This document shows, in pieces, positions 10,452-45,200 of a DNA stretch of 64,000 bases. The notes beneath the pieces were generated by a model. That model was not told the DNA's origin. It saw only the letters and a program-made list of their open reading frames with translations, and ran no database searches. Each line of letters starts with the position of its first letter. Within the stretch, counting starts at the first letter, position 1. The stretch lies in contig OZ076409.1 of NCBI GenBank assembly GCA_964187785.1, positions 12,898,001-12,962,000 of the forward strand, given 5' to 3'. The stretch comes from Amphiscolops sp. MND2022. Taxonomy: Eukaryota. A program made the position numbers and the translations under genes.

Positions 10452-10527
10452 ATGTCACTGGTTGCCAAGAGCTTCGCCATGCCTTTCATCACAGGATTCG
10501 TCCTTCTCTTGTCTTGCATGTCTCAGT
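10452..10527 (+). CDS. SDF2L1: Stromal cell-derived factor 2-like protein, exon 1 (signal peptide)
   Basis: MSLVAKSFAMPFITGFVLLLSCMSQ then T|GTAAGT; phase 1 joins exactly to AT at 15165 (Y-LASIQYVTCGS). Confidence 0.75.
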
Positions 10528-14600: not shown

Positions 14601-14789
14601 CCAGATGAATGTCAGATGTGGTAGTCGATGTGTGAAATGTCATTTTTCAGACCGAGTTTGAACTGTTGTCATATACACTATGGTAACGAAAAGCGACGTT
14701 CAGCTGAAAATTAATTCTTATTCAGTTTGTGAAGAACTTTTCATTTTCATTCTTAACCGGAAGTGAAATCAATCACTCGTGATTTAAAT

Positions 14790-15040
14790 ATTGTTGAAAA
14801 TGGTCAAACAAAAGCAATGGGCGGTGCTCGATTGGCCATCTTGGTCCTGAAATGAACCCTATTGAAAATATTTGGGCCATGTTTAAAAAAGCTTGAGAGA
14901 TCAAATTGTTGCCTGAGAGAAATCGGAAGAAAAGTTTATGGAATTGTGGAACATTATGAACCCTGAAGTTTTCGCAACTTGTACTCATCGTATGAGAATT
15001 GTCTGGTGAAGGTCATCAAGAACAAATCAAGTTTGACCGG
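14790..15040 (+). pseudogene. Tc1/mariner (DD34E) transposase C-terminal remnant
   Basis: LDWPS/..PEMNPIENIWAMFKK (one frameshift) matches the WP..SPDLNPIENIW motif. Confidence 0.7.
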
Positions 15041-15164
15041 ATATTAATTTATCACTTGTTTCAGCATTTGTTTTAAAATTTACTCTGTTCTGATTTCATT
15101 CAAAAAAATGGTATACGTAGCTTTTTGACACCCTAGTATATGTAACTTGACGTTGATGTTTTAG

Positions 15165-15366
15165 ATTTGGCTTCTATCCAGTACGTGACATGTGGCTCTC
15201 TGATAAAACTGGTGCACACGGACTACAGAGTGAGACTGCACTCGCATGACGTAAAGTACGGCAGTGGGTCTGGGCAGCAGAGTGTGACTGCCGTGCAAGA
15301 CATCGATGACGCCAACAGCTACTGGCAGGTGATCGGCAAGTACAACGCTCCTCAGTGCAAGCGAGG
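15165..15366 (+). CDS. SDF2L1: SDF2/SDF2L1 exon 2 (MIR domain 1)
   Basis: VTCGSLIKL...RLHSHDVKYGSGSGQQSVT...ANSYW is the SDF2 signature; TTTTAG acceptor, GG|GTTCGT donor. Confidence 0.95.
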
Positions 15367-17416: not shown

Positions 17417-17559
17417 AGAGGAAATCAAGTGTGGCGATACTGTGAGACTGCTGCACGTGAATACCAATAGGTACCTGCATACCCATTTGCACGATGCTCC
17501 CTTGACTAACGGCTACAAAGAAGTCAGTGCATTTGGGGAGAACGGCCGCAGCGACACGG
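17417..17559 (+). CDS. SDF2L1: SDF2/SDF2L1 exon 3 (MIR domain 2)
   Basis: IKCGDTVRLLHVNTNRYLHTH..APL...EVSAFGENGRSDTG; TTCAG acceptor, G|GTGAGT donor; phases match. Confidence 0.95.
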
Positions 17560-17986
17560 GTGAGTCAGAACCAGTTTACCAGTTTGTTGTCACGTCACTG
17601 TTGTTCATGTCCAGTAATTGTCTTGATTGTTTCAGGCAGGGTTGGCATGCTATTCAACACTGTTTTTTACTTACCTTATAAAAAGCAATGTTTTTTCCTT
17701 GTTCAGAACATATGTTTGTAACATATTTGGGGTTTTTACAAGGTTTTACAAATGTTTACCAATATTGACGTGTCATATATCATTTTGATGCTCGTGAGAC
17801 GCTATTTACGATTCAATGACTTAATATTAGCAAAAGGGAAATGCAGAAAATGCACTTGTGAATTATCAAGTTGTGCGTATTAATCGGTCGTAACGCTTGT
17901 TCACGCGGATTATGGCGCAGTTGGTCCATGAAAAGGCTCAGTGAATTTTCCCAAAACTGAATGTTATCTCTTTTCTACCAGCTACG

Positions 17987-18233
17987 TGTTATACGGTGTA
18001 ATACCGAACCGATTCCTTCGGTTGACAATGTCAATCAAACTTTGATCTTTTTATAGTCCTAAATGAGATTTATGTTTATATACATTTGTAAACATTGTGC
18101 TAGATCTTTCGTGCTAGAAATACATCATTTAGTTACCGTTGAACTTAGAGAAAAGATCGTTTTGACATTGCTTTCTGTTCGAAGATATATTTTACGAAAC
18201 ACTGTTTTTATTGTCTAACCAAGAAATAGAACA
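17987..18233 (+). repeat. 5' LTR (247 bp, TG...CA)
   Basis: Differs from the 3' LTR at 2 positions by eye. Confidence 0.95.
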
Positions 18234-18247
18234 TGGCGCAGTCAGCA
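18234..18247 (+). promoter_or_regulatory. Primer-binding site, probably tRNA-Ser
   Basis: TGGCGCAGTCAGCA is complementary to a ...UGCUGACUGCG-CCA tRNA 3' end. Confidence 0.7.
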
Positions 18248-21200
18248 AATTGAAATTACCCAAGAATATTTCAACAAAACAAAGAAAATGACAGAAGAAA
18301 GCAAGATTGAAGTACCGAATTTCGAAGCCACATCGGACGGAAAAAAGATATTTACACCGAAACAATGGCTCGAAAGATTCCGGTAATACGCAAAAAGGAA
18401 ACACAAAATGGACATTACCGAACTGATACGGGGAGCCGAGATGACACAAACCGGTTGGTCCGGAAAAGAAACAGAAATCCAAGAAGACTTCATATGGGGA
18501 ATTGGCCCCGAAGCGTTATACCAAATGACCCGGGCAGAATATAAAACCCAACCTGACAAAATAGCGGTAAAAGACCTTATCCGACTATTCAATGAATATT
18601 TCTTACCAAAGCGGAACACCTATCACAATCGCGGAGAATTCTTCTGGACAAGACAAACCGAATCCGAAACACCAGAAGACTTTTGGCGGAGACTTATAGA
18701 AATATAAAAAGAATGTGCATTTGAGGGAATAACAGCCGAAGACTTATTGATTTCAAAATTCATGACCGCAATTACGGACAAGAAACTTCGGGATAAACTA
18801 AAGAAAGAGAAGAAACTCGAACTGAAAAAGACAATCGAAATGATTAAACAGAACACATACGAAAGAAAGGATCGAAAAAACACAATACCGGAAGCTTCAA
18901 TTTTACACCGAGAAAAAGAAATAAAAAGAACCGATACAAAGAATGGAAAGATCCGACACAAGACCGAAGAACAAATTTACAAATGAGAAACCATGCAAAT
19001 TTGGCAACGCACAGAACTGGAACCCTACTCGAAAACTTGAAAACTTTGTAACAACTGCGCGGAAAGAAGGGACACTTCGCACGGGTATGCAGACAAAGAG
19101 ACAACTACAAACGCAAAGTACGCAATGTGACCGAAGACGAGTCAGAAATAATTGGAGGAGAATCCGACGAATCAGAAACAAGCATACACAGAATTGAAAG
19201 AATAAATAGAATTACCGACAGAAACAAATACCTGACAGCCGTGGTGAAAGTAAACGGTATTGAAAAAGAATTTATCGTGGATACCGGATCACCAATTTCA
19301 ATAATGCCCGTGGACGAGAAAATACTGAAACAAACCGAGATACAAAAAAGTGAAACAACGGTATCAAGATGTAAACAAAAATGAAGTGAAATTCCGGGGG
19401 AAAATACCGGCAAACATTGAATATGAGAACAACAAACAAAAAATGCAAATTCTAATTACCGAAAGAAACGACATTACACCATTACTCGGAATGGATTGGA
19501 TGAAAAAATTCAATTTGACAATCGGAAATATCCGAACGGAAGATATCAATCAATCGGAAAAGAGACGAGTGATCGAAAAGTTCCCAGACTTATTCAAGAA
19601 CAACACCACAATAAAAGATACCGAAATAAATATTCAGCTGAAACCGGGACACTACCCGGTGAAACAAAAAGCAAGACCGATCCCATTACATCTACAAGAG
19701 GAGGTCGGGAAAGAACTAGAAAAATTGATAAAAACCGGACATCTGGAAAAGGTAAAACACGTAGATGAAGATTGCTTTGTTTCACCGGTAGTAATTACAG
19801 TAAAAAACGATAAATCGGTCAAAATAGCACTGGACTCAAGAAAACTAAATGACAGCTGTATAAAAATCCGACCACACATGCCGAACATGGAAGAACTACT
19901 GAACCAAATTCCGGTGGAAATCACAAGAGACCGAACAAAAGAACTGAATATCTCGAAAATTGACCTCGACTACGCATACGGCCAAATGAAATTATCAAGA
20001 GACAAGCCGACAATGCGTATTCGCAATAACGGGAGGAAACTTCAGTGGATATTACAGATTTAAAAAAGGGTTTTACGGTCTTGCCGATATCCCCACAATA
20101 TTTCAAGAAAAAATTGACCGAACACTAGAATACTCCACACCGGCATGGCTGGACGACATCATAGTGGTAACCCGGGGTAGCCGGAAAGAACACGAGAAGA
20201 AATTATTCGAGATACTGAAAAAACTGGAGAATGCAGGATACCGAGCAAGCGAAATAAAAACCGAATTCTTCCTAAATAAAACAAAATGGCTGGGACACGA
20301 AATTGACGAAATGGGAATTAAACCAAATAAAGAAAAAGTGAAAGCAATATTGGAATTAAAAGACCCGGAAAATCAGAAACAACTGGAATCATTTCTCGGT
20401 GCCATCCAATATCTCGCAAAATTCTTACCAAGATTATCGGAAAGAACAAAGACTCCGAAAACTCCTCAAGAAAGACTTCTCGTGGAATTGGGGAAAACAG
20501 CAAAATGAAGATTTTGAAAACATAAAGAAAATGCTAACCGAAGAACCTTGCTTGGCACACTATGCAAAGGATCGAGAAAATATAGTGACAACCGACGCAA
20601 GCAAAACCGGACTTGGAATTACATTATGGCAGAAACAGTCGAATGGAGAAATTAAACCGATAGCTTTCGGTAGCAGATACTTGAATGATAGTGAGAAGAA
20701 CTACTCAATCGGAGAACTGGAATTACTTGCAGTTGTCTGGGGTTTAGAAAAGTTCCGATTTTATCTATACGGAAAGAAAGTTTTTCTTTACACAGACCAC
20801 CAAGCGCTCGAACCTTTGATAAAAAGGAACCGGTGTAATAGGCAATACAGCGCAAGACTAACCAGATGGCTAGACCGGCTTGCGCACTTTGATATAGCTA
20901 TTCAACACATGGCAGGAAGTAATTTAAAGTTTACCGACTTCTTAAGTAGAAATCCGGTAGAAAACGCAACAACCGAAGACGTATACGATGAGCAAAACGT
21001 AATTAACATCCTTTCAGAACAAGCCGAGATGTATAGAAAATACGGACAAATATTCGCCGACCAATCACAAAGCGCGACGGAAAGAACAAAAACGACCGAA
21101 ATTAATTCTAACGACCAATCACAGCGGAATAGAACATTCGAGAAAAACCGAGACGTGAACAAAAAGCGCGATCAAACGAAACTCATTGTAAACAATCGAC

Positions 21201-23630
21201 GACAAAAAGCTAAAACGGAAAGTCATACCCGAAAATCAAAATCAAATTTAAATCCAAATTCAAATTCAAACCGAACTTTTTTACAAAATTTACCTGTATT
21301 TAAGACCGAAATGGACCGGGATTACTTTCACTGCGGCGCGACGGCGGAAATAATGGAAATAATCCGGAAAAGGAGAAAGAGCCCGGAGAGACTCAGACTG
21401 GTAGAAAGACGTCTAGAGATTTCCCGACCCGGAACGATGAGAAGAAAATTCGACATGAATGCTCAAAGACAAATATGGGTCCCCTCAAGGCCGAACAAAA
21501 GAAGCAGGGAGGAAATTGCCGAGATAGACGGTGAACTAATGTCACGGGCAAACAGATTTGGGGTAGGATACAGACCCCTGTAAGAAAGGGCCGAAGAAGA
21601 AGAAGAGCAAGAAACGCAACAACCGGAGATATTGGAAGAAGCCGAACCCGAAAGCGAAGGTGAGAGCCAAGTAATCCGGGGTGATAACTTCCCAATCGTC
21701 GACTTGAAGGCATTCAACACCGAAGAGAAGGAAGCCCAATTTATACAAATAAATCAAGTGATCGACAAAATCACCGGAAACAAAAAATTAACCGAAGAAA
21801 CAATTTAAAAAGCCGAGTTCGATTTCATGCTCGATCTCAAAACACTGATAGCAAAGTCAACCACGGACGCGGAGCTGAATAGAGTCAGAGACGCAATGAG
21901 ACGAAATGAAAAGAACACGGCCCCAGAAGCATACCGAACAACATTTGAGAAACTGAGCAACAAGTGGGGACTAACCTTCAACGACGACCGAATAATTGTG
22001 CCAACGGAGCCTGAGAAAGAAGCTACTAGAAACACTGCACTTCGGTCACGCCGGATACACAAAGATGGCAGCGGAAGCCAAAATATTTTGGTGGCCAAAC
22101 ATGCAGAAAGAGATCGAGGAGAAAACAAAAAACTGCGTGGCATGCATGGCATCTGGTAAGAATTTAAAATACCAAACGCGAATTCGGAAAACTGAAATTA
22201 CTAACGGAACCGGGACAAGAAATTCAAATGGACTTTTCCGGTAAACTAAACAACAAAAAATTAAACGGAGAACATCAAATCTTAATCGTGGTAGACAGAT
22301 TCAGTAAATGGCCAACGGCGAAAATCTGTAAATCAGCGGAAACTAAAGAGTCATAAATTTTCTGAAACAAAATTTTAACTTATACGGATTTCCGGAGAAA
22401 ATAAAAACGGACAAAGGCGGAGCGTTTATCTCAAAAGAATACAAAGAATTTTGCGAATCGAAAAACATTGAAATCGAATATAGTACACCGAGAATTCATA
22501 CCGGTACGGGAGCAATAGAACGCGCAATACAAACGCTGAAGAACTTGATTCTTACTAACCTAGAAGAAAACATATGTCTGACCGAATGTGTAAATAGAGT
22601 GTTAAACGTGATGCGCTTTACAATACATACGGGATTGAAAATCACACCATTTGAATTACATCACGGTCGTAAACCGAGAACTGAACTAACGAATGTAATT
22701 AAAGACGGAAGATCATTCCTATCTAACTGGTCGGAATTACCTGTTTCAGCAAGCAACAGACCGAAAATCCCAATCTACATTACCAGAAATGGTGACGGAG
22801 AAGTATCAAACCATCTCGTGATGGCCCGAACCAAAAGCGAGGAAAAAGCGTTAGCCGAAAAATCCCCGAAGAAGAAAAATTCGGTTGGTACATACCCCTT
22901 TCATTTCTTCGAAAAGAACCATAATAAAAAATCATTGGAAGGTAGATTCCAATCAGAATTACAAACCGCAGTAAACGGTACGGAACATACCGTAACCACC
23001 GATACCGGAAAAGTAATCCACCGAAAATTTATTTCGGGTCCAATTGTATTTCAGAAAGAGAAGAAAGCAGCACCGAAAATCGGAGACAACATCACTCCCA
23101 AAAACCGCCATTGCCTCAGAAGAGTCGACGGTAAATATATACAATGGAATGAAATCCTGCGAGACGTACTCAACGGAAAGCTAAAAATCATTCCGAACCC
23201 GAGGACCGGATCAGACTCGGAAAGCGAGGAAGGCGAGATAGACGAGGATGAGAGCGATTTCGAAAATCACGACACCTCCGAAAAAGACGGCTGCTACCGA
23301 CCCATAACAACATCCCCCGAGGATGAATTGAACCTGCATACTGACGGCGAACTAAACACCGGTGAGACAAAATTTAAAATTAATACAACCGAGAACGAAG
23401 GCATAAGACGGTCAAACCGTGAAAGTAAACAACCGAATAGATACGGGGGAGTCACATATACAAAACACTTTTGGACATAATTTTAATATAAAACTTTTTA
23501 CAGGCGAACAATGGAACATCAGGAAAGAGCCCCCGAAACCACTGACGAAACCAGCAGACTTCATCCGGGAGAAAACACCGACTCCAGGACCGTCGAAGCA
23601 ATAAGCTGAAAGAGCTTAGAGTAGAGGGAA

Positions 23631-23877
23631 TTTTATACGGTGTAATACCGAACCGATTCCTTCGGTTGACAATGTCAATCAAACTTTGATCTTTTTATAG
23701 TCCTAAATGAGATTTATGTTTATATACATTTGTAAACATTGTGCTAGATCTTTCGTGCTAGAAATACATCATTTAGTTACCGTTGAACTTAGAGAAAAGA
23801 TCGTTTTGACATTGCTTTCTGTTCGAAGATATATTTTACAAAACACTGTTTTTATTGTCTAACCAAGAAATAGAACA
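23631..23877 (+). repeat. 3' LTR (247 bp; first TG mutated to TT)
   Basis: Preceded by polypurine tract 23618-23630, followed by TSD CTACG. Confidence 0.95.
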
Positions 23878-23967
23878 CTACGAAATAAATAACATCAAAT
23901 ACAAAATTTTTCGATAAAATACTTAGATTTTTCAAAATCTCATACAAATTACCAACCCTGGTTTCAG

Positions 23968-24049
23968 GTGACAATTGGGTCGTTGTCTGCGACACTGATG
24001 TTTGGCGTCGAGACGATGACGTCAAGCTCAAACATGTCGATACCGGAAT
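23968..24049 (+). CDS. SDF2L1: SDF2/SDF2L1 exon 4
   Basis: GDNWVVVCDTDVWRRDDDVKLKHVDTG; TTTCAG acceptor, AT|GTTAGT donor (too short for the ORF track). Confidence 0.93.
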
Positions 24050-24507: not shown

Positions 24508-24697
24508 GTATCTTATCGTGACTGGGAGTGTGTATGGACGACCCATAAAAGGTCAGTACGAAGTGGCAGCCACTAAGCGGGAATCGAGAAACTGCTATTG
24601 GAAGACATCCGAGGGCGCTTACATCAAACCAGACGATGGGCCCACTAAAGTACTCAACAATGACGATGACGATGATAGTGAACATGATGAGCTGTGA
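24508..24697 (+). CDS. SDF2L1: SDF2/SDF2L1 exon 5, C-terminal HDEL ER-retention signal
   Basis: YLIVTGSVYGRPIKGQYEV...WKTSEGAYI...HDEL*; spliced CDS totals 693 nt (230 aa). Confidence 0.95.
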
Positions 24698-42200: not shown

Positions 42201-45200
42201 TCATTCTTTTGTGCCCAAGAACTCACTACTGTTAAGTCGCTAGTGAGTGACCTACAGCAACCAATGTTAAACATGGGTGCTGTCTGTCCTCTTGATTTGG
42301 ATCAGCGACTTATCACTGCTTTGCAGATAGTGACTGACTCGGAAGACGTAGTATGTTTATCGTTTTACCAGTTGTTGTTGTGTTCGTTTCTTGTCGTAGT
42401 TTTATTATTTTGTCTGAGTGGAAGAAAATGTTGGTTGGGTCGTGAATTTTCTTTTTTGCTTTAGTGGTTGTCTGTTTTGACAGTCCATGTGATGCGAAGC
42501 AGGATCAGTTTCCGGGAATTGAAGAATATTCAGCGGCGATCATACGCTGGATTGATTCGTCTGGCGACGAAAAAGGTGTCGTTAGATTGAAATGGGAGAG
42601 TACCAGGCAGCAGTAAATTTTTTTACGTGAACCACTATTTATGAAAGAAAAGGAGGGGCTGTCTTTGAACTGTTTTGTTGTAATGTAGTTTTTAGTCTTT
42701 ATGTCCTTTTCTTTCTAAATATCGTAGTGAGCTATCAGGATGAGAGCGCTTGTGTTTTGCTTTTACTTATGATGTGAGATCAGTAACTTTGTTTATTAGG
42801 AACACGAATAGGCATAGGAGTCAAAGAAAGTATAGGAGTTTTGTTGTGGCGGCAACGGTGAAATCGTTAAAGTTTGATAATTGTGATCATCATTCGTATA
42901 AGTAGCAGGAGATTGAATTCCTGAATCAGCATTAGGCGGAAAAGTAGCGTGGTTTTTTTGATTTTGTTGAAACTTCTCAATAATATCTCGTAGTGGTGAG
43001 AGGATGAAAGCCATAACATCGAGAGAACATTTTTGTTGATCCGAATTGTAGTTCTCACTTTGTGACAGCACTAAATGATCGCAGAAAACACTATCTTCTG
43101 TTATAGGCGCGAAGTTAGTGATTAAAGGAGGGAGTCTTTCCTCATGAGGAAATTTTTCAATGAGGTGATTACGATGAGTAACTTTGATATTTTTTGGAAT
43201 AGCGTCCTCTTGAATTTCGTATGTAGCTATCGTTGTTTGTTTTGTGACTGTAAAAGGGCCTACGCGTAGTTGTTTCAGCTTTTGTGATCTGCTCAAGTCG
43301 GCAATGTGATTTTCTAAGAAAACTTTTTGTCCAATATTGATCGGTCGTCCATGATTGAATCAGTTTCTGTATTCGTGTGCTTTAGAAGTGATTTGGCGGC
43401 ATCGTTGATAGGTTGACGGGAAAATTCGCTTGAAGTCGTTTTCACGAGCAACGAATTCAAGTGAATGTTGTGGTCTGAGTAATCGGTCCAGGGATTTGTT
43501 CGGTAGCGAATTTTCACTGTGTGTATGAGGTTTCAGTCCATCGCAGTAATCGGCTGTGCACTGTTTGTTTTTGTCTTTGATTAATCCGAAATTTAGCCTC
43601 ATCGGAACATGCGGTTTTGTCCCAAAGACTGTTTACTAGGGGGTAAGCCTCGAGATAGATTACACTTGTGTCATGAGCGAATGCAAAGTTCGGTGCTAGT
43701 TCTGTCCAATTGTTACCTGACTCGTTAGTGAAGTTTCTCCAGTATCGTGTGAGGTGTTAGTTTTGTACTTCTACTTTAGCGTTTTTCATGGCGAGTATGT
43801 TGTTCGTGGAGCAAAATATATTCCAAATTCTTTAGTCCAGTTGATGAAATCACTGTTGATGAAAAATGTCATGAGTTTCCATGGGGCGTTTATCCGACTT
43901 CTTTACCCAACTACGTCTTTCTGTAGTACTCGGTCATTGAGTTGTTCTTCAACGAGTCTGTTTACAAAAAGATCAGCAGTTTTTCCAAAATCACTCAATT
44001 TCTGTATTAGATCTTTTGTATCTACTTCTGGGTGTAATTCTGAGTCGATGTTTGCTTTTAGAATTCGTTTTTGGGACTGGTTCTTTCGGATTGATTCGTT
44101 TGCAAAGGAGAAATCCTGTAGGAATCCGGGGTCCAACTGATCGAAGTTTAGTTCAGCTATTTCATAATAGCTGTCGTAGTCATCAACACGTAGTACTTCA
44201 ATTTCGCTGTAAGGATCTTTTTTATGTGCTGTAGTTCGTGAAGTAGGGACAAACGTCTGAACAAAGTCGTTTGTTTTGGTTTATTGTTTTCCGAGTTTGA
44301 AACAGTCTGCCATGTCTTGCATTGTGGTTGAGATTTCGTTATCTTCTATGTAATCTTCAAAATGCTGTTCTTCACCATCGTTCGTCAGGTGTAGAACTTT
44401 TTTGTCATTTCCATGCTGACAGATTATCGGAAAGCAGTCATTGCAAGAAATATCCTGACTATTTTCCTGTGTGATATTGTAGTGCATTTGGTCTCCTTGT
44501 TCATCAAAGAAAGATATTTTTTTCGGTTTGTCTTTGTGCTGTTACTGCAGTTTGTTGATGTCAGACAGTGTTACATTTCGACTTAGTATATCTGGGAAGG
44601 CTAGGTTTGAGCCTGGTGTCCAGATAATCTTCAAGTTATGGAATTTGTTATAATAACTTGGTACTTGAATAACCGATGAGAGAGTTGTCCTTTTCGTCCC
44701 CAAAGGTAGAAGATAGGTTTGTGGTCACAGTAAAGGTAGATCGGAAATGGAGAGCCGACTATGTAGTGTTCATACGTCTGCAGTGCAGATGCAATACCAC
44801 AAAGTTCTCGGTGGAGAGTAGACATCTTTTTTTGCTTTGCCATACACGCGAGAATTGAAAGAAACTATTCGTTTTCCTTGTGGAAAATGTTGAACTTTTA
44901 TACATCCAGTTCCTACGTTTGAAGAGTCAAAATGAATGTGAAAAAGGTACTCAGTTGAGGATCTGCTAGATTTGTATCCTCTGAGACTCTCTCTTTTATC
45001 TGGTTGAAGAGTTCTTCAAGTTTTTTGGTCCATTTGAAATATGTAAACTATTTTATTAGCTCATAGGATGGTTGGCTATCGACGTGTAAATATTTGGTGT
45101 AACAACTATAAAAGCCTAAACATCTGAGTACTTTCTTTACATCTCGTTTGCGTTCAAGAGATTTCAGATTTTTCAAATCCTGGATTCTTTTAGCTACTGG

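Follow-up and report, generated by a model that had tools for sequence, protein, structure and literature searches.

A hAT-type transposon that duplicated a splice acceptor of an SDF2-like gene in Amphiscolops sp. MND2022, and the leaky allele it may have created

Transposons that are spliced out of pre-mRNA, such as Ds and dSpm in maize, Tc1 in C. elegans and 412 in the vermilion gene of Drosophila, often give leaky alleles, and after insertion into exons such alleles use cryptic sites in or near the ends of the element. Constructs with a duplicated 3′ splice site serve to test the choice between intron and exon definition, and recursive splice sites (‘ratchet points’) occur in long introns of Drosophila and vertebrates. 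Here we analyse a 64,000-nt stretch of the genome of Amphiscolops sp. MND2022 (‘the window’; contig OZ076409.1, positions 12,898,001 to 12,962,000 of the forward strand, with all coordinates below counted from the first base of the window). In this stretch a hAT-type miniature inverted-repeat transposable element (MITE), itself carrying a nested Ty3/Gypsy long terminal repeat (LTR) element, lies on the splice acceptor in front of exon 4 of an SDF2-like gene and is flanked by two copies of that acceptor. Taken as an analogy, the locus most resembles the leaky spliced-around transposon alleles and the duplicated-acceptor competition constructs. With the maize, Tc1 and 412 alleles it shares a mobile element in a transcribed gene that is perhaps tolerated through splicing; unlike in those alleles, the element lies on a native acceptor, and it would be the duplicated native signal that works. 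With the constructs it shares a single donor facing two acceptors identical over positions -7..+1, so that proximity is set against exon context; unlike the constructs, this is a natural allele, in which the two sites were originally 436 nt apart and now lie 6.3 kb from each other, in an organism with unstudied splicing rules.

A further parallel, drawn in the preliminary description of the locus, is with introners. These MITE-like elements, exemplified by IE1 of Micromonas pusilla, create introns in which one splice site is the element’s own, the 3′ AG being taken over from the target-site duplication, as set out in those portions of the review PMC11282704 that deal with them. Measured against these portions, the analogy holds only in that an element bearing terminal inverted repeats (TIRs) is flanked by a target-site duplication, with the AG to be used lying inside the duplication. 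It fails in that the intron pre-existed: upstream of the duplication there remain 69 nt of intron that do not come from the transposon and have a donor of their own, and introners are new introns at intron-free positions, whereas here orthologous proteins have zero residues in the place of the old intron. Both splice sites are of host origin as well, the donor at 17560 being host sequence and either AG lying in a copy of a duplicated host 8-mer, so that the element, unlike the introners of these portions, gives no splice site; and the other target sites of the family are unrelated to splice signals. We take the locus, on the evidence of its junctions, to be not an introner but an intron expansion with a leftover decoy acceptor, which is not intron gain.

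The 5′ splice site cgg|GTGAGT (17559/17560) marks the end of exon 3, whose last bases, ..ACACGG, run to 17559. The 76-nt intron closes with ..GATTGTTTCAG, its AG lying at 17634-35 before a G at 17636, and the same AG|G occurs again at 23966-67/23968. The octamer GTTTCAGG sits directly outside both inverted termini: from 17637 onward the sequence reads CAGGGTTGGCATG..., and the right MITE end ...TTACCAACCCTG stops at 23960, giving way to the second octamer (23961-23968) and then to TGACAATTGGG.... The placement of a MITE with its 8-bp duplication on the acceptor, as first described, is thereby confirmed to the base, with both copies located. The intron now to be removed extends over 17560-23967, which at 6,408 nt is 84 times longer than before. 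Its first 76 bases must be removed because the junction between exons 3 and 4 (..SDTG|DNW.., compared with ..TDTGDNW.. in the acoel protein) is colinear with 106 orthologues without a gap, and we judge this 76-nt intron to be older than the insertion because 69 of its bases lie outside both the duplication and the transposon; the ancestral intron postulated earlier is in this way borne out, if indirectly. The empty allele that was to be looked for is absent from the assembly: both the exon 3/intron flank and that of exon 4 are present there a single time, and no empty site was found.

The host gene is, to judge from its predicted protein, a conserved SDF2-like cofactor of endoplasmic reticulum (ER) chaperones. 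The SDF2/SDF2L1 family is defined by a length of ~210-230 residues, a MIR domain and an ER-retention end, and the gene encodes a MIR-domain protein with such an end that is colinear with its orthologues. The label SDF2L1 used before accordingly stands as far as the family goes (MIR, HDEL, colinearity), and falls as a choice between the SDF2 and SDF2L1 paralogues, a split that belongs to the vertebrates. Exon 3 alone matches Pfam MIR (E=2.7e-6). Searching a set of 5.8 billion proteins with exon 2 returned 823 SDF2 or SDF2-like homologues, of which the best reach 67-74% identity and the first two come from acoel flatworms; the same query found no protein or open reading frame fragment from the species itself, and the read-through frame of exon 3 had zero matches in the protein collection. 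When the best acoel protein was compared with the organism’s own 1.07-Gb assembly, it gave four exon matches, every one at this locus, and no second SDF2 gene was found there (next matches at E ~0.2); the SDF2-like gene is single-copy in the assembly. Candidate exon 1 has no homology support, and it joins exons 2-5 into an open 693-nt coding sequence (CDS), whose conceptual product, joined by coordinate, has 230 residues, ends in HDEL and departs from the 106 orthologues at three of the 61 columns that are conserved in at least 95% of them. The CDS is undamaged, as are all splice dinucleotides and the conserved residues. At ~14780-15060, within the candidate first intron, a Tc1/mariner-like transposase remnant can be made out by eye (its translation, ..DWPS..NPIENIW-like, is interrupted by a frame break).

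Once the nested element is cut out by coordinate, the MITE measures 428 bp and ends in 9-bp TIRs, CAGGGTTGG (17637-17645) and CCAACCCTG (23952-23960), which are complementary at 9 of 9 positions. It is small, non-coding and multi-copy. Its left 352 bp have 35 matches in the organism’s own genome at 66-91% identity, both of its ends align to other copies, some of which run continuously across the site of the nested element, and the 13-mer terminus CAGGGTTGGCATG occurs 96 times, as compared to 3 times for the reversed control. The duplications vary between copies. Among six other full-length copies, four have 8-bp duplications of their own (AGTTTAGT, 8/8; ACCAAAGG, 8/8; GACTACAC/GACTATAC, 7/8; GCCGTATC/GCCGTACA, 6/8) and two are ambiguous; at 29 further loci with the terminus, a mate terminus together with a duplication (at most 2 mismatches) was found in 14, seven of these perfect.

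An 8-bp duplication combined with a CAGGG.. terminus is a feature of hAT transposons, the TIRs of which start with the consensus YARNG. We accept the element as a hAT-type MITE because of its 8-bp duplication, its CAGGG.. terminus and the existence of a DUF659-encoding element with the same 12-bp termini; the short CAGGG TIR and the 428-bp non-coding body are likewise as in hAT MITEs. The DUF659-encoding element, a candidate autonomous partner of the MITE (L059:3986-5872, on contig 2 of the organism’s own genome), is 1,887 bp long and has perfect 12-bp termini identical to those of the MITE and a perfect duplication, TCTGCTTT. Its uninterrupted frame of 555 residues matches DUF659, which we take to be linked to hAT transposases, at E=1.8e-17, and the C-terminal match to Dimer_Tnp_hAT, at E=0.059, is below the cut-off. 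Four full-length copies of this family are 98-100% identical, and dozens of internal-deletion derivatives are 96-100% identical; the MITE of the window is not among its 78 matches, sharing the termini and not the internal sequence. The family gives the impression of being active now or of having been so very recently, with new MITEs arising from it through internal deletion, and a transposase matching the MITE termini has probably been active very recently. Adjoining the hAT element on the reverse strand (L059:587-2119) is a frame of 510 residues with weak endonuclease/exonuclease/phosphatase matches (E ~0.003), possibly an endonuclease of the long interspersed nuclear element type.

It had been suggested that the MITE family might be enriched at splice acceptors. 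The target sites of the other copies show no resemblance to TTTCAG|G and the 35 other termini have no acceptor-like bias. There is thus no sign of targeting by the family, whose flanking 8-mers look unrelated to the acceptor, and we read the insertion as a chance event by an ordinary hAT MITE. The element does carry an AG of its own at the left end: the left junction (17634-17639, TTTCAGGCAG) has two AGs four bases apart because the TIR itself starts with CAG|G. Whenever a family member inserts behind a T-rich target, an acceptor-like YYYCAG|G arises on its left side; an example is the DUF659-encoding element, where TCTGCTTT is followed by CAGG.

The LTR element has LTRs of 247 bp that differ at 2 of 247 positions and are bounded by TGT..ACA (the 3′ copy starts with TTT); a first estimate of 268 nt at 96% identity came from over-extension into the flanks. 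TGGCGC.., as expected of a primer-binding site, directly follows the 5′ LTR, and the domains come in the Ty3/Gypsy order protease, reverse transcriptase, RNase H and integrase, with the coding region interrupted and spread across several frames. The element is flanked by the 5-bp duplication CTACG (17982-17986 and 23878-23882), and another MITE copy, L002, preserves the empty site, running continuously through ..CCAGCTACGAAATAA... Together these junctions show the order of events, with the MITE arriving first and the LTR element second, in agreement with the nesting first described. The LTR family is abundant and young: 511 candidates were found at a first look, and all 40 that were scored are 97-100% identical. 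Several LTR pairs are separated by ~5.65 kb, so that the 5.9-kb version, broken frames included, is apparently the usual one in this family.

As each of the two elements comes from a multi-copy family, an assembly artefact might be suspected in which nested repeats were wrongly placed in the intron. We find this scarcely credible, as the 8-bp and 5-bp duplications are clean and of the correct size, which a misjoin would not create, and both flanks are unique in the assembly.

The features of the locus are collected in Table 1. Elsewhere in the window, a frame at 42796-43359 on the reverse strand has a near-threshold match to Integrase_p58_C (E=1.3e-5, 25.6 bits against a cut-off of 27) and is probably a retroelement fragment. 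A scan of the organism’s own genome for the TCP1 family found multi-exon chaperonin genes on chromosome-sized contigs and also on the small unplaced contigs C908, C1383 and C1751; those on the small contigs may be haplotigs, paralogues or the DNA of another organism.

Table 1. Features of the SDF2-like gene and of the two nested transposons, in window coordinates
Feature	Coordinates	Strand	Remarks
Candidate exon 1	10452..10527	+	Start codon, 25 hydrophobic signal-peptide-like residues, donor agt|GTAAGT, phase 1; from a heuristic scan
Exon 2	15165..15366	+	Matches acoel SDF2 protein P0001, residues 22-91
Exon 3, MIR domain	17417..17559	+	P0001 residues 91-139; phase 1 end before cgg|GTGAGT
Ancestral intron, 76 nt, with its own acceptor TTTCAG (‘decoy’)	17560..17635	+	Missing from the orthologue alignment
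Left target-site duplication copy GTTTCAGG	17629..17636	+	Last 7 intron bases plus first exon base
MITE left arm	17637..17986	+	TIR CAGGGTTGG; candidate cryptic donors 17641 (agg|GTTGGC) and 17794 (ctc|GTGAGA)
Ty3/Gypsy-type LTR element, sense to the gene	17987..23877	+	LTRs 17987-18233 and 23631-23877; 5.9 kb
Asp_protease_2, weak	19052-19384	+	Pfam
RVT_1	19990-20508	+	Pfam
RT_RNaseH_2	20360-21583	+	Pfam
Integrase_H2C2	21996-22244	+	Pfam
rve, sub-threshold	22347-23480	+	Pfam, 29.2 bits, cut-off 32.6
MITE right arm	23883..23960	+	TIR CCAACCCTG; aligns to right ends of other copies
Right target-site duplication copy GTTTCAGG	23961..23968	+	AG 23966-23967
Exon 4, 82 nt	23968..24049	+	P0001 residues 135-165; donor aat|GTTAGT
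Exon 5	24508..24697	+	P0001 residues 164-230; ends ..EHDEL, stop TGA 24695-24697

How the gene could be expressed from this allele turns on the two acceptors. The AG at 23966-23967 appears to be the only one that gives the conserved protein, and the sole productive splice would be 17559>23968, past the intact native acceptor, because exon 4 joins exon 3 colinearly with the orthologues; the earlier claim that a correct mRNA requires the intact proximal AG to be bypassed is upheld by this colinearity. The same description held that the distal AG has little pyrimidine tract of its own. As judged by a crude consensus count over four or five native sites, used here in place of a trained model, this does not hold: positions -23..-4 contain 12 pyrimidines out of 20 at the distal acceptor, equal to the proximal one (12/20) and in line with the other acceptors of the gene (11-14/20), and a branch-like CTCAT lies at -25, with its counterpart TTCAT at -28 of the proximal site. 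It is the right arm of the MITE that provides the distal acceptor with its branch region and pyrimidines. The distal tract has 6 Ts in the same interval versus 11 in the proximal one. Over -7..+1 the two acceptors are sequence-identical, and the duplicated heptamer has the T-rich YAG core that is found at all of the gene’s acceptors, which at five sites form a small sample.

Splicing to the proximal AG would lead into the MITE. Reading on from it, a stop is predicted after 168 residues; a 5-nt exon at 17636-17640, with agg|GTTGGC as its donor, causes a frameshift, as had been foreseen, and ends after 173 residues instead of the normal 230; and skipping of exon 4 brings a stop after 144 residues. 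In none of the three isoforms are the last MIR repeat and the HDEL signal retained. In a crude donor scan, ctc|GTGAGA at 17794, 158 nt past the proximal AG, scores equal to the native intron-2 donor, which makes a MITE-derived pseudo-exon of 158 nt plausible. Looping of the RNA through TIR-TIR pairing was considered as well and rejected, the pair probability being ~0.03 in the configuration before the LTR element; nor does the MITE stand out in its structure (z=-1.6 against mononucleotide shuffles).

Recursive splicing had been put forward as another way to a normal mRNA: the 76-nt intron would be removed first, and a zero-length exon with the GC donor 17636-17637 would then be spliced to 23967. 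Removal of 17636-23967 does restore the frame, as the duplicated G replaces the lost one, and the locus shares with ratchet points an AG directly before a potential donor inside a long intron. However, known ratchet points reconstitute AG|GTRAGT, whereas 17634-17641 reads AG|GCAGGG; the regenerated donor, cgg|GCAGGG, fits only ~5 of 9 consensus positions and is a poor GC donor, and GC donors normally need otherwise near-perfect complementarity. This route is very improbable.

The anatomy of the locus shows the history of the allele. A non-autonomous hAT-type MITE inserted into GTTTCAG|G, spanning the acceptor of the 76-nt intron, and repair of the staggered cut duplicated the eight bases, one copy staying on the old intron, which kept its branch region, pyrimidines and AG intact, and the other coming to precede exon 4; the 5.9-kb Ty3/Gypsy element later entered the MITE in the orientation of the gene. 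We picture expression since then as follows. The conserved protein would arise solely from direct pairing of the donor at 17560 and the distal AG, an acceptor composed of MITE-derived upstream sequence and the duplicated TTTCAG. Exon definition should help this acceptor, which has the real 82-nt exon 4 and its donor behind it, and strong competition is to be expected from the intact proximal acceptor, only 76 nt away from the donor. The proximal site would feed transcripts into the MITE, by read-in, through the 5-nt exon or through the 158-nt pseudo-exon to ctc|GTGAGA, and under this scheme every product that enters the MITE would be truncated before the last MIR repeat and HDEL. What we predict, with about even confidence, is a leaky (hypomorphic) allele that gives both correct and aberrant mRNA; this reading is supported because the distal acceptor matches the gene’s others in pyrimidines and because cryptic donors exist.

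Alternatively, the spliceosome may ignore the proximal acceptor, which has no real exon behind it, and splice 17559>23968 efficiently, so that the gene is functional and the insertion effectively neutral, perhaps fixed, its impact buffered by the target-site duplication. The intactness of the CDS, splice dinucleotides and conserved residues is consistent with this, as are the gene’s single copy and its conservation across animals, the equal pyrimidine counts of the two acceptors and the branch-like motif at the distal one; moreover, the gene already has other long introns, one of 2 kb and one candidate of 4.6 kb. While these points keep a working gene among the possibilities, we consider it rather unlikely: the untouched proximal acceptor and its branch region are only 76 nt from the donor, and what is known of small-intron splicing predicts that this acceptor is used. 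The LTR element, furthermore, is sense to the gene, and within active genes there is usually a bias against this orientation.

The age of the insertion would bear on this choice. The MITE copy differs from its family consensus by 11% (22 of 196 positions; 11.3% in a second estimate, with 12 private and 10 shared differences), and other copies differ from the consensus by 8-16%, no pair being more than 88.7% identical. In simulations restricted to substitutions and requiring an intact open reading frame and 16 intact splice bases, a dead gene aged for as long as the MITE divergence implies was intact in only 0.4-3% of runs (P=0.004-0.03), so that a MITE as diverged as the old copies, if it had aged in place, would speak for a functional gene. 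The argument fails, however, since the hAT family with the same termini and the LTR family are both young. Dating from MITE divergence is not decisive, because the insertion cannot be dated when a near-identical, probably still mobile hAT family shares the MITE termini: an old MITE copy, even with the LTR element already inside, could have moved here recently. Dating from the nesting was rejected likewise, since rough reasoning from copy numbers gives an old element that aged in place and one that was re-mobilised about the same chance of having an LTR element inside. The firm lower bound on age is set only by the LTR pair (2/247 differences), and a dead gene only as old as that pair (~0.4% per lineage) would still be intact 82% of the time.

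Intactness at such a young age (P=0.82) is also what a complete loss of function would predict. In that case the proximal AG is used or the LTR element terminates the transcripts, correct mRNA is lacking altogether, and the insertion in the reference haplotype is a recent, probably polymorphic loss-of-function. The native acceptor, intact at 76 nt from the donor, the cryptic donor ctc|GTGAGA 158 nt further on with a score like that of the intron-2 donor, and the truncation of all alternative products fit this explanation, and near-identical copies of both transposon families elsewhere make a very recent origin possible. It would be unusual, though, for a distal acceptor identical over -7..+1 and with a genuine exon behind it to go entirely unused, and the assembly has no second SDF2 gene to compensate. 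We regard a null allele as unlikely.

The leaky allele, which remains our preferred reading, has points against it as well. Our division of the splicing into correct and aberrant is guesswork from general splicing knowledge, and the site scores are the crude consensus counts on four or five native sites described above. The intact CDS does not discriminate between the explanations, and the 11% divergence of the MITE would argue for a long tolerated residence, an argument that is countered by re-mobilisation. As to the interpretation offered in the preliminary description, its core stands, namely that exon 4 relies on the distal one of the two copies of its acceptor; it was overstated with regard to introners, recursion and the missing pyrimidine tract.

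A literature search over titles and the openings of abstracts found no described case of a target-site duplication copying an existing acceptor, which is weak evidence of absence. If the gene fails, the locus is no more than an insertion allele, leaky or loss-of-function, of a conserved ER-chaperone cofactor in a single reference haplotype. Whether the gene works or fails, the locus carries a warning for annotation, since an intron-definition or shortest-intron model would choose the wrong acceptor. If the gene works, it shows that a splice junction freshly broken up by a transposon can be regenerated by a long target-site duplication, and that a native acceptor, though complete, can be passed over where it has no exon behind it; both points bear on intron growth and splice-site choice. 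It is possible, if doubtful, that the duplication acted as a built-in repair, the copying of TTTCAG|G having let the MITE and a 5.9-kb retroelement be absorbed without loss of function. If this were true, an identical heptamer 6.3 kb away would be preferred over the acceptor 76 nt from the donor purely by virtue of the exon that follows it, a natural experiment on exon definition versus proximity in an early-branching bilaterian; and transposons with long duplications would have a general, so far unremarked route by which to strike splice junctions harmlessly, inflating introns as they do so.

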